Source: a virus. Taken from it: a DNA stretch of 64,000 nucleotides. A program made the translations under genes and the position numbers. Location of the stretch: positions 1 through 64,000 of the IMG/VR virus record IMGVR_UViG_3300021962_000068; one strand, given 5' to 3'. Under the pieces are notes generated by a model. It did no database searches. It saw only the letters and a program-made list of their open reading frames with translations, and was not told the DNA's origin. Shown here piece by piece: positions 3,116-28,343 of this stretch (its first letter is position 1; each line of letters opens with the position of its first letter).

Positions 3116-3217
3116 GCCAGGGTTGCTAATGTTGGCCTGAGGGCGAGCCTTATAAACTCGTAAAGCACCGTCTAGATAAGGCGTGTAACGTGGGTTCGAT
3201 TCCCACCCCTGGTACCA
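3116..3217 (+). tRNA. tRNA with UAU anticodon (Ile) and very long variable arm
   Basis: Acceptor GCCAGGG/CCCTGGT, A73, CCA; anticodon arm CGAGC-CTTATAA-ACTCG; ~29-nt variable region; T arm GTGGG-TTCGATT-CCCAC. Confidence 0.8.
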
Positions 3218-3223
3218 CATTCT

Positions 3224-3301
<78 letters not shown>

Positions 3302-5889: not shown

Positions 5890-6155
5890 AGTTAACCTAC
5901 ACAGAAGAATTTCCAGAAAATATCTTAGAACCTATCTTAAAACTAGTACCAAAAACACCAAGTTTCTTAACAGTAGAATTTATTGATAGACTACGAGAAA
6001 TGCTGGTTGAGGTGGGTATAGTATGCGAAGATCGTGACGAAATCATTTTATGTTTAAATTTGTTTGAAGATTTAGACTTGATTCAGCTACAAGAAGTTCA
6101 AGAAGATAACTACGTAACTTACAAAATTCATAGGAAGTATTTAGATGAGCAGTAA
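5886..6155 (+). CDS. hypothetical protein
   Basis: ATGA overlap with thyX. Confidence 0.7.
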   Translation: MKLTYTEEFPENILEPILKLVPKTPSFLTVEFIDRLREMLVEVGIVCEDRDEIILCLNLFEDLDLIQLQEVQEDNYVTYKIHRKYLDEQ

Positions 6156-6276
6156 AAAACCAAAAACAAAAGAAGAAACTAAAAAAGACAAGAAACCCGT
6201 AAAATCAGATTTTGACTTTTTTAAACTAAAAGCCAGAGCGCACGATGGTAAAGGCAATCTGGTATGGCGGGACTAA
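6145..6276 (+). CDS. small Lys-rich protein (43 aa)
   Basis: Read by hand; bridges the neighbouring ORFs. Confidence 0.55.
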   Translation: MSSKKPKTKEETKKDKKPVKSDFDFFKLKARAHDGKGNLVWRD

Positions 6277-6530
6277 TTGAATACTACTTATTATTTTGTT
6301 TGACAACAACTATAGTGTTCTTAGGAACAGTTATTGTTCCCATAGTTAACAACCTATCAGAAATATACCCTAAACCAAAAGTTTTAAAACAAGGTAGTAA
6401 AACATTTCTAAAAATAATCTTAAGCGTGCTTATCTTTATCTTAGCACCAGTAATGTTTATTATCTACTTATTTCCAGGGTATTTAGAAAGATTCACTCAC
6501 AGAATCTTTGAAGAACTAAAGAAAGAATAA
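6264..6530 (+). CDS. membrane protein (2 predicted TM helices)
   Basis: Two hydrophobic stretches. Confidence 0.7.
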   Translation: MAGLIEYYLLFCLTTTIVFLGTVIVPIVNNLSEIYPKPKVLKQGSKTFLKIILSVLIFILAPVMFIIYLFPGYLERFTHRIFEELKKE

Positions 6531-6569
6531 AAATTTAAACTTGAAAACTTATTGAAATTATTATATAAT
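6529..6569 (+). promoter_or_regulatory. sigma70-type promoter (TTGAAA-N17-TATAAT)
   Basis: -35 6541-6546, -10 6564-6569. Confidence 0.75.
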
Positions 6570-6593
6570 ATTTCTTTAATCGACGAGAAAACC

Positions 6594-6866
6594 ATGAAAA
6601 TCGTTACATTTGACTATACTGATCTTAAAGGCAATTCAAGCTATCGTGAACTAGCAGTAGAACTAGAACCCACTGACAAGTTTTGTGGGTACGATATCGG
6701 CGAACTTGATGATGAACAAGTTGCACACTTTGTTAACGAGTATGATGAGTTACGAGAAGTATTTAGACAAAATGTTTTTAATTTAGCCAATAAATATGAA
6801 CTAAAATATAAGTATCGTACTTTCTTTGAGAAAAGTATGGCTAATCTTATTATTGAGGATATTTAA
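6594..6866 (+). CDS. hypothetical protein, possibly WYL/Sm-like fold
   Basis: N-terminal VTFDYTDLKGNSSYREL resembles the start of WYL domains; ATG at 6594. Confidence 0.55.
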   Translation: MKIVTFDYTDLKGNSSYRELAVELEPTDKFCGYDIGELDDEQVAHFVNEYDELREVFRQNVFNLANKYELKYKYRTFFEKSMANLIIEDI

Positions 6867-6919
6867 GCGGTTCTACAGCGCACCTGTAGTAAAACACACA
6901 CAGCACAAAGGAAAAACAA

Positions 6920-7159
6920 ATGACAAAAAGCGCTTATGAGTTGCGGATGGAAATGCTTGAAATGAGCAAGAGCTATCTTGAAACTCAATATCAAACAAAC
7001 GTAGAATTTGCCAAAACTGTATTTGACACCGCTATTAAAGCAGGTCAAGCTAACGTACAAGAATGGCAAAAGTATGCTCCTAAAATGTATGACTTTAGCG
7101 ATGTAGTTAAAAAAGCTGAAGAACTTTATGGTTTTGTTAATCAAAAGGACAAATCATGA
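6920..7159 (+). CDS. phage hypothetical protein (AYELRMEML...VVKKAEELYGFV)
   Basis: AAAGGA RBS; motif resembles small proteins of aquatic phages (recalled). Confidence 0.75.
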   Translation: MTKSAYELRMEMLEMSKSYLETQYQTNVEFAKTVFDTAIKAGQANVQEWQKYAPKMYDFSDVVKKAEELYGFVNQKDKS

Positions 7160-7329
7160 AAAAGTTTTTTAGCGTAATCAAAAGATTCTTTAACTGGTTG
7201 ATTAGGTCAATTGAAATTAGTCATCAGTCTAGAGTAGAACATTATATTAGAATGATGCAACCACGTAATGCTGCTGAAGCAGATTTTTATCTGCAACAGT
7301 TTATGCGTAGATCGGTGTCGCAGCGTTAA
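7156..7329 (+). CDS. hypothetical 57-aa protein
   Basis: AAGGA RBS, ATGA overlap; read by hand. Confidence 0.65.
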   Translation: MKKFFSVIKRFFNWLIRSIEISHQSRVEHYIRMMQPRNAAEADFYLQQFMRRSVSQR

Positions 7330-7399
7330 TCTGTGAGTCGGGGAGAGGCCTCTGCTGTGCCTCTCAAAGGTTGCTGGCGAGGCTGGTGGCGGCAGCTAT

Positions 7400-7665
7400 T
7401 ATGATTGTATGAAGCGAACAGAAAAGTATTTTGGACGCGGGTTCGACTCCCGCCTGGTCCACCATAAACAAATATGCAAAATGTTTCTTTATGATGGGCC
7501 AGTCATGGTTTCGACAAAGTAAATAGTAAGCAAGTAGACAATCCGGCGGGCGATGCCGTACTAACGCAAAAAACCATAAATGCCAATGATGAGGTATTTG
7601 CTTTAGCTGCTTAAAGCTAAGCTGAGGATTTTATCCATGTTCCTTATTACCCAAACATGGATACA
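7400..7665 (+). ncRNA. ssrA: circularly permuted (two-piece) tmRNA
   Basis: 3' acceptor piece GCGGG-TTCGACT-CCCGC-CTGGTCC-ACCA (to 7464) precedes 5' piece GGGCCAGTCATGGTTTCGAC (from 7496); G3-U70 pair; tag frame ANDEVFALAA-stop at 7582-7614. Confidence 0.93.
7582..7614 (+). other. tmRNA tag reading frame (A)ANDEVFALAA*
   Basis: ATAAAT then GCC AAT GAT GAG GTA TTT GCT TTA GCT GCT TAA. Confidence 0.92.
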
Positions 7666-7668
7666 TAT

Positions 7669-7709
7669 AAAAATTTACTCTTGCTGAGTTAATTTCTTTA
7701 TGAGATAAT
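7669..7709 (+). promoter_or_regulatory. sigma70-type promoter (TTGCTG-N17-GATAAT, with TG extension)
   Basis: AAAAATTT tract, -35 7681-7686, -10 7704-7709. Confidence 0.65.
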
Positions 7710-7718
7710 ATTATTTCT

Positions 7719-7982
7719 ATGACACGAACAATCAAAAAATTTAAGCATTGGGAGCAAACACTAATTTATAGTACGCTCGAAAAAGCAATGCAAGTCAAGT
7801 TAGGTATACACGATATGTGTTTTACTAACAAATCAAATCCTAAAGATTTACCTCCTAGTATAGTACCAACTGAAGTATTATATGATATTTGTTCATGTTA
7901 TGAGGCTCTATTTGAAAAATTGCTAAAAAACGATCTGCTTGAAGCAGGATACCCTAAATCAAACCCAACTAATAAACACTAA
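7719..7982 (+). CDS. hypothetical protein
   Basis: ORF directly after promoter. Confidence 0.65.
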   Translation: MTRTIKKFKHWEQTLIYSTLEKAMQVKLGIHDMCFTNKSNPKDLPPSIVPTEVLYDICSCYEALFEKLLKNDLLEAGYPKSNPTNKH

Positions 7983-7995
7983 GGATTAAATTTAA

Positions 7996-8358
7996 ATGGC
8001 CGCTTGGACTCCTGAACTAAAAGAACAAGTTAAACAAATGTATCTGGATGCTGACCCTACTCCGGAAACTTCAGTCGAAATTATTAAAAATATTGCTGAA
8101 GAACTAGAACAGTCACCCAATGGTGTACGTATGGTTCTAATTCAAGAGGGTGTATACGTTAAGAAAGAAGCTAGTAGCTCTAGCTCAAAAAGCTCTGCTA
8201 GTAAAGGCGAAGGCTCGAAACGAGTCAGCAAAGAAGCAGCTATCAGTGAATTGCGCGAACTAATCGAGCAGCGTGGCGCTCCCGTAGATAGCGAAATTCT
8301 TGATAAACTCACTGGCAAAGCAGCAGTATATCTTACCTCTGTTATCAAAGCAATTTAA
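7996..8358 (+). CDS. T5 D3-like DNA-binding protein
   Basis: WTPEL...SPNGVRMVL...GVYVKK...LDKLTGKAA matches recalled T5 D3 pattern. Confidence 0.75.
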   Translation: MAAWTPELKEQVKQMYLDADPTPETSVEIIKNIAEELEQSPNGVRMVLIQEGVYVKKEASSSSSKSSASKGEGSKRVSKEAAISELRELIEQRGAPVDSEILDKLTGKAAVYLTSVIKAI

Positions 8359-8364
8359 TCTCGT

Positions 8365-8390
8365 GGCAGCGAAAGCTGCCTTTATTTTTT
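8365..8390 (+). terminator. intrinsic terminator
   Basis: GGCAGC-GAAA-GCTGCC followed by T-rich tail. Confidence 0.75.
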
Positions 8391-8401
8391 GGTAGAATAG
8401 C

Positions 8402-9013
8402 ATGGCAACTAAACGTTCAAAACGAAGCGAAGAAGAAAAACTAACTCCTAGTAATATTGAATATGTTATCAGCCTGCTGGAGGCTGAGAAGCCTATTACT
8501 AAAAAAGATGCTTGTGCAATTTTAAACATTGCATACAATACCACGCGTTTAACCCAAATTATTACAAAATACAAAGAAGGTAAAGAACGTACAGCTAAAA
8601 AGCGTGCTGAAAAACGTGGTAAGCCCCTATCGCAAGACGAAGTAGTCTATATCATTCAAGAATATATTAGTGGTAGCACTATTGATAGTATTAGTAATAC
8701 TATTTATCGTGGAACTACTCTAATCAAACAAACCCTTGATAAATATAGTGTACCAGTTAGAGCGAGAACAACAGACTATTTTAAACCAGAACTTATTCCA
8801 GAAGATGCAGTAAGAGATAAGTTTGATATCGGTGAAATTGTCTATAGTGCCCGATACGATTCAACAGCTAAAATTGAAAGTGAACGTAAACAGGGCGATA
8901 CGTGGGTTTATGGTATTTGGCTGCTAGCCGAAAAATGGCAACAACGAGCATACCAGCCCGCAGAAGAATTAGCAAGCCTAGAACACTTACGGGAATTAGG
9001 TGTTCGAGTATGA
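8402..9013 (+). CDS. T5 D2-like protein
   Basis: TKKDAC, KKRAEKRGKP, ELASLEHLRELGV pattern and position in T5 replication block. Confidence 0.65.
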   Translation: MATKRSKRSEEEKLTPSNIEYVISLLEAEKPITKKDACAILNIAYNTTRLTQIITKYKEGKERTAKKRAEKRGKPLSQDEVVYIIQEYISGSTIDSISNTIYRGTTLIKQTLDKYSVPVRARTTDYFKPELIPEDAVRDKFDIGEIVYSARYDSTAKIESERKQGDTWVYGIWLLAEKWQQRAYQPAEELASLEHLRELGVRV

Positions 9014-27656: not shown

Positions 27657-28343
27657 TTAGTAGTCTTTGTAGGCTATAATTATTTCTTTGCATAACCTAC
27701 TGCGAACAATGTCGTCGTCTAAAAATCTTACCGTTTCAACACCGTTTATTTTTTGTAATCTATAAAGAGCATCGTCTAAACCACTATCTTTAATATCGCA
27801 CTGATAATCATCGCCGCTAAGTATAATTTTACAATTTTTACCTATACGGCTAAGCAACATTTTAAACTCAGTTTTAGTCATGTTTTGTACTTCATCAACT
27901 AAAACAACACAGTTTTCAAAAGTTAAACCACGCATAAATCCAAGTGGTTTAGGTTGTATAGATCCATTTTTTAGTGCATACTCATAAAACCCTTTGCCAA
28001 GCGTTTTAGTAAATACACTATCAAAAGGTTCTAAGTATGGCAAATATTTTTCTTCTAGAGTACCAGGTAAATACCCTAAACTTTTGCCGACTTCAACATT
28101 AGGTCTAGTAAGATAAATTTTCTCTACTTTTCGGTGAAATAACTGGCTTGCTGCATATGCGGCTGCTACATATGTTTTACCTGTTCCAGCACTGCCTATT
28201 CCAAATATAATATCATTATTATATATAGCTTCTAAATATGTTTCTTGTATATAATTAAGTGGTCTAACTTCCCTAAAATCAACATATTGCTCTGTTGTCT
28301 GCATTTTAGTACGTCTTACTTTTTTACCACTATTTGTAGCCAT
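27657..28343 (-). CDS. phoH: PhoH-family ATPase
   Basis: GSAGTGKT, LGYLPG, FMRGLTF, DEVQN, SGDDYQCD, DIVRS. Confidence 0.95.
   Translation of the reverse strand: MATNSGKKVRRTKMQTTEQYVDFREVRPLNYIQETYLEAIYNNDIIFGIGSAGTGKTYVAAAYAASQLFHRKVEKIYLTRPNVEVGKSLGYLPGTLEEKYLPYLEPFDSVFTKTLGKGFYEYALKNGSIQPKPLGFMRGLTFENCVVLVDEVQNMTKTEFKMLLSRIGKNCKIILSGDDYQCDIKDSGLDDALYRLQKINGVETVRFLDDDIVRSRLCKEIIIAYKDY

Follow-up and report, generated by a model that had tools for sequence, protein, structure and literature searches.

The stretch of DNA analysed here, hereafter the window, comprises the first 64 kb (positions 1 to 64,000) of the IMG/VR virus record IMGVR_UViG_3300021962_000068, a linear contig of 80,737 bp which is estimated by CheckV to be about 77% complete. 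A 389-nt gap between two plus-strand open reading frames (ORFs) in this window is occupied by what is very probably a functional, phage-encoded transfer-messenger RNA (tmRNA) of the two-piece (circularly permuted) form and of the beta type. The gene has a GC content of 42%, and the reading frames that overlap it are short and attributable to chance. ARAGORN calls one permuted tmRNA (tmRNA*) in the window, at 7372-7705 on the plus strand, with the predicted tag ANDEVFALAA*, and the locus matches two Rfam models of the permuted form over their full length, namely RF04321 (tmRNA_permuted, model positions 1-213; 133.4 bits, E 6e-26) and RF01850 (beta_tmRNA, 1-331; 126.1 bits, E 5e-38). As the respective cut-offs are 47 and 84 bits, both scores lie far above threshold, and together with the ARAGORN call they bear out the two-piece tmRNA that had been proposed in an initial annotation of the window. 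The permuted order described there, in which ACCA at 7461-7464 precedes G1 at 7496, is correct on direct reading, as is every coordinate given with it.

The assignment also has comparative support. Thirteen copies of the gene from a clade of related, uncultured phages (described below), 56-70% identical to the window copy, were aligned with MAFFT, and base pairs were taken from the Rfam alignment and from folds. In this alignment 80.8% of structure cells are paired, as against 71.1% in shuffles and 37-52% when the partners are slid; 29 of 48 pairs have changed on both sides, which none of 500 shuffles reached, and the covariation score is 0.301 versus 0.131. Helices P2a and P2c/d, the T arm, the acceptor stem and the first stem of the PK1 pseudoknot are 95-100% paired across the clade. 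The lower scores of helix 5 and the terminal hairpin stem from register shifts introduced by MAFFT; on visual inspection, each clade copy has a different terminal stem below the same loop, and 9/10 pairs of this wholly divergent stem have changed on both sides. The encoded peptide is similarly constrained. Tag positions 1-3 (AND), 7 (A), and 9 and 10 (AA) hold invariant residues, each encoded by two or three different codons, which argues for selection on the peptide and not on the RNA alone, while positions 4-6 vary (S/E/N/Q, V/Q/T/I and F/Y, respectively). The copy in relative L185 encodes an identical ANDEVFALAA, with three synonymous and no non-synonymous codon changes. These patterns demonstrate that selection maintains the gene across a clade of uncultured aquatic T5-like phages. 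The features of the locus are collected in Table 1.

Table 1. Features of the two-piece tmRNA locus and its flanking ORFs, in window coordinates. Pairing values refer to the 13 aligned clade copies.
Feature	Position	Strand	Evidence and remarks
Upstream flanking ORF	7156-7329	+	57 amino acids, without family match; left edge of non-coding gap
Acceptor piece, minimum extent	7403-7464	+	P2 5' strands, T arm, acceptor 3' strand and ACCA; RF04321 model positions 1-63, ARAGORN
P2a 5' strand GAUUG	7403-7407	+	Pairs with CAAUC 7539-7543; Rfam helix; 100% paired, 2 pairs changed on both sides
P2c/d 5' strands UAU-U-UUG	7427-7433	+	Pair with CAA-A-GUA 7515-7521; Rfam; 94.9% paired, 5/6 pairs changed on both sides
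T arm GCGGG-UUCGACU-CCCGC	7437-7453	+	Sequence, Rfam; 100% paired, 3 pairs changed on both sides
Acceptor 3' strand CUGGUCC	7454-7460	+	7/7 pairs with 7496-7502
Discriminator A73 and encoded CCA 3' end	7461-7464	+	Sequence
Intervening segment, 31 nt	7465-7495	+	Folds back and extends acceptor stem; probably removed in maturation
Acceptor 5' strand GGGCCAG	7496-7502	+	G1 is the putative RNase P cleavage site; Rfam
Coding piece, minimum extent	7496-7663	+	Acceptor 5' strand to terminal hairpin; RF01850 alignment to 7670, ARAGORN
D-loop analogue GGUUUCGAC (GGTTTCGAC in DNA), after TCAT	7507-7515	+	Matches Rfam consensus UGGuUUCGAC
PK1 first stem-loop CGGC-GGGCGAU-GCCG	7544-7558	+	Strands 7544-7547/7555-7558; Rfam helix; 100% paired, 2 pairs changed on both sides
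Conserved UAAAU just upstream of tag frame	7577-7581	+	Sequence
Tag frame GCC AAT GAT GAG GTA TTT GCT TTA GCT GCT TAA = ANDEVFALAA*	7582-7614	+	ARAGORN
Helix 5, hairpin enclosing UAA stop	7601-7627	+	Fold; U-A to A-U swap at one pair in clade (382/400)
Terminal hairpin, 10 bp	7632-7663	+	Loop CCUUAUUACCCA (7642-7653) matches beta_tmRNA consensus loop CCUUGuuACcaAA
Downstream flanking ORF	7719-7982	+	87 amino acids, without family match; right edge of gap

In the tRNA-like domain, GGGCCAG and CTGGTCC pair completely, and the alanyl-tRNA synthetase (AlaRS) identity pair G3:U70 and the discriminator A73 are both present, as described earlier; the two are invariant in all 37 unique permuted tmRNAs compared (from phage and bacterial loci), where acceptor pairs 4-6 covary, and G3:U70 is kept in 13/13 clade members. 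The long-range pairs proposed between GATTGT and ACAATC also hold (7403-7408 with 7538-7543), with P2a paired throughout the clade. The acceptor strands and the spacer between them form one continuous hairpin, made up of the acceptor stem, CAUAAA/UUUAUG and AAAUAU/AUGUUU, with a folding energy of -21.2 kcal/mol (z = -6.06; 0/200 shuffles as good), and the fold-back of the spacer recognized earlier (CATAAA/TTTATG) is a part of this larger structure. Spacers in clade relatives measure 59-190 nt and likewise have complementary flanks. In some relatives (L185, 379-792; L182, 319-742) the spacer is 150-190 nt from CCA to G1 and holds an ATG-started open frame, which in L185 comprises 52 codons, starts 14 nt after the CCA and enters the coding piece by 27 nt; the spacer of the window is empty of such a frame. 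Five clade copies (L179-L181, L183 and L184) have a T-loop of UGCGAAU or UGCAAAU, with G55 for U, and the D-loop analogue of the same five reads UAG rather than UGG (AUAGUUUCGAC and similar), apparently a coupled change at the G18-U55 tertiary contact. A single event is probable, because the tag ANDSQFALAA is common to four of the five copies and that of the fifth (L181) ends in this sequence.

In the coding piece, the tag read in the initial annotation is the one returned by ARAGORN, and the hairpin described over the stop codon is present both on direct reading and in the fold. This helix 5 can be drawn in two registers, UUAGCU/AGCUAA (7603-7608/7615-7620) or the minimum free energy form (7601-7611/7615-7627), and together with the next hairpin it folds at -20.4 kcal/mol (z = -3.89). 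AGGA at 7625-7628 can pair with UCCU at 7641-7644, on the 5' side of the terminal loop, and may thereby form a small pseudoknot after the tag frame. The combination AGGG/UCCU is kept in most relatives, and in L069 the shifted positions read CGG and CCG, which may reflect compensation.

The virus that carries the gene is T5-like, as had been suggested, in that, judged by DNA polymerase and major tail protein, it is closest to Demerecviridae among cultured phages. The contig encodes a family A DNA polymerase, a DnaB-like helicase, an NAD-dependent ligase, an SbcC-like nuclease and a ribonucleotide reductase, together with ThyX, PhoH, a lysozyme and a major tail protein; no tyrosine integrase was found in it. 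The polymerase is 50% identical to those of the nearest cultured phages, the Vibrio phages Gary and Thalassa (Thalassavirus; Ermolyevavirinae, Demerecviridae), and for the major tail protein the identity to counterparts in Vibrio and Aeromonas Demerecviridae is 31-34%. As nucleotide-level matches to cultured phages were limited to the tRNA genes, the designation is right but the relationship distant. A polymerase search of IMG/VR returned 363 relatives, of which the 80 that were kept are 71-78% identical, and these constitute a large uncultured aquatic clade. Segment 6000-9000 of the window recurs in the estuary and marine metagenomes of several studies, and one clade relative (G414) is complete, with direct terminal repeats. 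T5-like phages are characterized by long direct terminal repeats in which the pre-early genes lie, and by injection of their DNA in two steps. A search for related loci with the neighbouring ORF at 8402-9013 found no relatives. Elsewhere in the window, a weak tRNA match (3116-3214; 34.3 bits, 99 nt), without an ARAGORN call, stands directly upstream of a tRNA-Met (3224-3301). The PhoH-like protein (27657-28343, minus strand; Pfam PF02562, 214 bits) is encoded 20 kb from the tmRNA; in 11 other viral loci (L018, L019, L023, L035, L036, L040, L050, L051, L052, L060 and L064) PhoH homologues lie approximately 0.7-8 kb from a beta-type permuted tmRNA, and approximately 0.7-2 kb from it in seven, a proximity that may reflect shared lineage rather than functional linkage.

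The tmRNA recurs at a constant position within this clade. Among loci with a long enough flank, six relatives have a permuted tmRNA by ARAGORN, located 7-10 kb upstream of the polymerase gene, and these copies score 115-132 bits on RF04321. Of 16 large clade contigs searched over their whole records, 11 hold a tmRNA above cut-off, and none of the three with a completeness of 90% or more (128 kb; 124 kb, with terminal repeats; 99 kb) lacks one; the remaining contigs are fragments or have sub-threshold matches. Two such matches to tmRNA_permuted, without an ARAGORN call, occur at G409:C1:12513-12681 (46.5 bits; L186) and G411:C1:25665-25855 (41.6 bits; L187), which may hold degenerate or unusually divergent copies. 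SmpB (PF01668) was sought in the 80.7-kb contig and in the three near-complete clade genomes and had no match in any of them, which extends the earlier remark that none lies in the window; the RNA must therefore use the SmpB of its host. The near-complete relatives are likewise devoid of an integrase gene. The absence of SmpB from the same genome is the usual state for published phage tmRNAs.

Trans-translation needs RNase P, AlaRS, EF-Tu and ClpXP-type proteases, all of which would here be supplied by the host. As we envisage it, the gene would be transcribed within the long block of plus-strand genes. Since no sigma-70-type promoter or canonical terminator was found at its flanks, and since a tRNA gene stands directly upstream of the tmRNA in several relatives, we infer a polycistron containing tRNA and tmRNA that is subsequently processed. 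The precursor would fold with the 31-nt spacer hairpin stacked on the acceptor stem; host RNase P would cut 5' of G7496 and host 3' processing would stop at the encoded CCA (7464), leaving an acceptor piece of approximately 62 nt and a coding piece of approximately 170 nt held together by the acceptor stem and P2. Host AlaRS could then charge the RNA by way of G3:U70 and A73, and host SmpB and EF-Tu would bring it to ribosomes stalled on broken mRNAs, where translation would resume at the GCC at 7582 and add (A)ANDEVFALAA, the ALAA-COOH end of which would direct the product to ClpXP-type proteases of the host. The most likely role, which we put forward by inference only, is that the phage thereby sustains ribosome-rescue capacity while host transcription, including that of ssrA, is off and mRNA is being degraded. 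It is possible, though speculative, that the RNA substitutes for host tmRNA cut by defence nucleases, or that it redirects proteolysis.

Several considerations weigh against a functional tmRNA of this kind. That the RNA suits the SmpB and AlaRS of its host is an assumption. A search of 7000-8000 for sigma-70-type promoters gave none, and no canonical terminator was found beside the gene. Three of the four pairs in the middle P2 helix of the Rfam model are mismatched in the window copy. The PK1 pseudoknot of the initial annotation stands only in part: its first stem, CGGC/GCCG, is paired in every clade copy with two compensatory changes, a comparative form of support given that the stem by itself is no stabler than shuffled sequence (z = 0.05), whereas for the proposed second stem (GCG 7550-7552/CGC 7565-7567), of only 3 bp, 35% of cells are paired among the 13 clade copies, within a poorly alignable region. 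The latter test is a weak one because the region upstream of the resume codon occurs in two architectures in the clade, short (as in the window) or long with an extra hairpin. Lastly, neither gene form of tmRNA occurs in four cultured Demerecviridae, namely the Vibrio phages Gary, VCPH and PG07 and the Aeromonas phage AhSzq-1, so that T5-like phages in general do not require the gene. With regard to transcription, the pair TTGCTG and TATTAT at 7371-7402 was considered as a promoter and rejected, since the motifs are separated by 20 nt and directly adjoin the first helix.

Other explanations share some of this evidence. An improbable one is that the RNA is functional, but that its purpose is to reprogramme proteolysis through the choice of adaptor or protease, or to recycle tagged host proteins into amino acids. 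The free variation of tag positions 4-6 in the clade, between two fixed ends, would suit such a purpose. Compared with the enterobacterial tag, that of the phage has F for Y and V for N. The authors who described phage Melnitz raised the recycling idea for their own phage (PMC9004378). The C-terminal ALAA is nonetheless the usual degron, the AND at the start is equally commonplace, and nothing therefore marks the tag as aberrant. Less probable still is that the RNA acts as a decoy, titrating host SmpB or AlaRS and thereby inhibiting trans-translation by the host, as has been proposed for the RNA of mycobacteriophage DS6A. The DS6A RNA consists of the tRNA-like domain only; phage relics of tmRNA reduced to this domain are known, and tmRNA of E. 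coli is inhibited by a molecule of similar kind (PMC4131195, PMC11915505); the lack of a phage SmpB beside the window gene accords with this idea as well. A decoy, however, needs no tag frame, and in the present gene purifying selection preserves the resume codon, the frame, the degron and the hairpin over the stop codon; PK1 stem 1 and P2 also covary.

Assembly deserves separate mention, as the gene sits where metagenome assemblies are disturbed. In four marine or aquatic metagenomes, contig depth over 7414-7514 is 4-12x that of the flanks (roughly ten-fold), and contigs break at 7396-7487, a jump which suggests that these communities are rich in other tmRNAs with near-identical tRNA-like domains. 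DNA contigs from independent marine metagenomes cross both junctions between gene and phage, that of run X3 spanning 6000-7464 without mismatch and that of run X5 spanning 7433-9000, and a chimera is thus unlikely. The least credible of the alternatives, that the gene is a functionless passenger captured from a host or another phage, be it a decaying relic, an attP-type ssrA fragment or such a chimera, can appeal to these breaks and to the fact that tmRNA genes are common integration sites of which fragments are found in phages (PMC9004378), but it is at odds with a gene that is complete rather than a 3' fragment, on a contig without integrase, at the same position across a deep clade with compensatory changes, bridged by independent contigs in a region whose depth spike fits a domain common to other tmRNAs, and without a recent donor among 401 Burkholderiales genomes (matches of 32-95 nt). 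A functional two-piece tmRNA is, in our view, much the best account of the locus.

With regard to the origin of the gene, the closest copies found anywhere share 60-72% identity with it. In a BLAST search of the 401 Burkholderiales genomes, nearly all matches measured 32-46 nt and fell in the tRNA-like domain; no recent donor is apparent among these genomes, given that the longest match is 95 nt. One of these genomes (G383) is unpublished; it contributed one short match, and no claim is based on it. An identical acceptor stem occurs in bacteria, in Cupriavidus strains and in Acidobacteriaceae metagenome-assembled genomes. Three Cupriavidus genomes (G001, G002 and G004; L148-L153, L157-L159) have a standard one-piece tmRNA (216-225 bits on RF00023) and, on another contig, a second tmRNA that is permuted and beta-type, with the tag ANDEKFALAA. 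The notion that this second copy is prophage-borne was dropped, its neighbours being LysR, MFS, oxidoreductase and RecD2-type genes. The Acidobacteriaceae genomes (L146, L150 and L154) have a permuted tmRNA with the long tag ANKGV...ALALAA, and the only one of them that was searched (G003, with L146) holds no standard tmRNA above cut-off. In a FastTree tree of tmRNAs the window copy groups with some, not all, of the T5-like copies; since the RNA is too short and too divergent, we draw no inference of transfer from this tree.

Phage tmRNAs of this form have been described previously. In the paper on phage Melnitz, tmRNA was reported in 402 of 18,146 phage genomes, and 53 of the 133 unique sequences were two-piece, 50 of these from aquatic phages (PMC9004378); a 2025 tmRNA database lists 79 bacteriophage sequences (PMC11915505). 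The novelty implied in the initial annotation was thus overstated, because two-piece tmRNAs of phages are already published (PMC9004378) and annotated in GenBank phage records. In its order of acceptor piece, spacer and coding piece, the window gene conforms to the beta-type tmRNA (RF01850, and the merged model RF04321), with which it also shares a tRNA-like domain with G3:U70 and A73, the P2 helices, the first stem of PK1, UAAAU before the resume codon, a tag of the ANDE..ALAA type, a hairpin over the stop and a terminal hairpin with the loop CCUUnUUACC. Unlike beta-type genes of bacteria, it resides on a phage of lytic type rather than a bacterial chromosome; unlike the beta_tmRNA model, it is without the last GC-rich terminal hairpin and the promoter-like 5' part; and it is AT-richer, with the middle P2 helix mismatched. 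It resembles the permuted ssrA genes of the OM43 phage Melnitz and of pelagimyophages in belonging to an aquatic phage, and no phage SmpB is reported for those viruses either (PMC9004378). These are nevertheless T4-like myophages with alpha-type tmRNAs, some with a glutamine riboswitch, whereas the window gene is beta-type, belongs to a T5-like siphophage lineage and has no riboswitch match in the Rfam search. The mycobacteriophages of the Bxz1 group and Bacillus phage G likewise encode ssrA without SmpB (PMC4131195), but their tmRNAs are one-piece and unpermuted, and they belong to other groups of phages and hosts.

Within the GenBank phage collection, the best nucleotide matches to the gene are in Stenotrophomonas Menderavirus (Marzo, Moby, Mendera and IME-SM1) and in Acinetobacter phage BUCT628. 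The Menderavirus records annotate a tmRNA, which for Marzo was confirmed as permuted and beta-type by ARAGORN and Rfam; the copy in BUCT628 is unannotated and is assigned to the same class by the same programs. Like that of the window, these copies are beta-type (119-124 bits on RF04321, 94-95 bits on RF01850), and they adjoin tRNA genes. The matches cover 16-21% of the query at 77-83% identity, and they lie in unrelated myoviruses with different tags (VAANDDSYTVRIAA and ANDNVFGAKTLAA). More broadly, a degenerate pattern for the permuted junction recovered 62 IMG/VR contigs, all of which received a permuted call from ARAGORN, and among the 14 of these loci that were run against Rfam, 12 are beta-type and two alpha-type (RF01849). 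The literature on T5-like phages and tmRNA, in those parts of the papers that were accessible, apparently consists of genome announcements which name tmRNA in passing; for this reason, and to this extent, the T5-like lineage as a carrier of two-piece tmRNA may be new to the literature, a modest extension of what has been reported.

The literature already covers the form of the gene, its occurrence in aquatic phages and its reliance on host SmpB, and no new category is opened here. The present findings add a T5-like, Demerecviridae-related lineage to the phages with two-piece tmRNA, and they depict a gene that is conserved, and constrained in structure and peptide, over a deep clade rather than captured sporadically. 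Tentatively, and with more doubt than confidence, we propose that the tmRNA is a vertically inherited, near-core gene of this uncultured aquatic T5-like clade, absent from cultured Demerecviridae, and that the beta lineage is now largely phage-borne, without a close bacterial donor. The 13 aligned natural variants offer material for investigating which parts of a minimal two-piece tmRNA are needed. If the proposal is true, then the clade would provide a natural system for understanding why some lytic phages need a ribosome-rescue RNA of their own. The conservation described here lends support to the idea that some lytic phages of aquatic environments benefit from encoding ribosome rescue.

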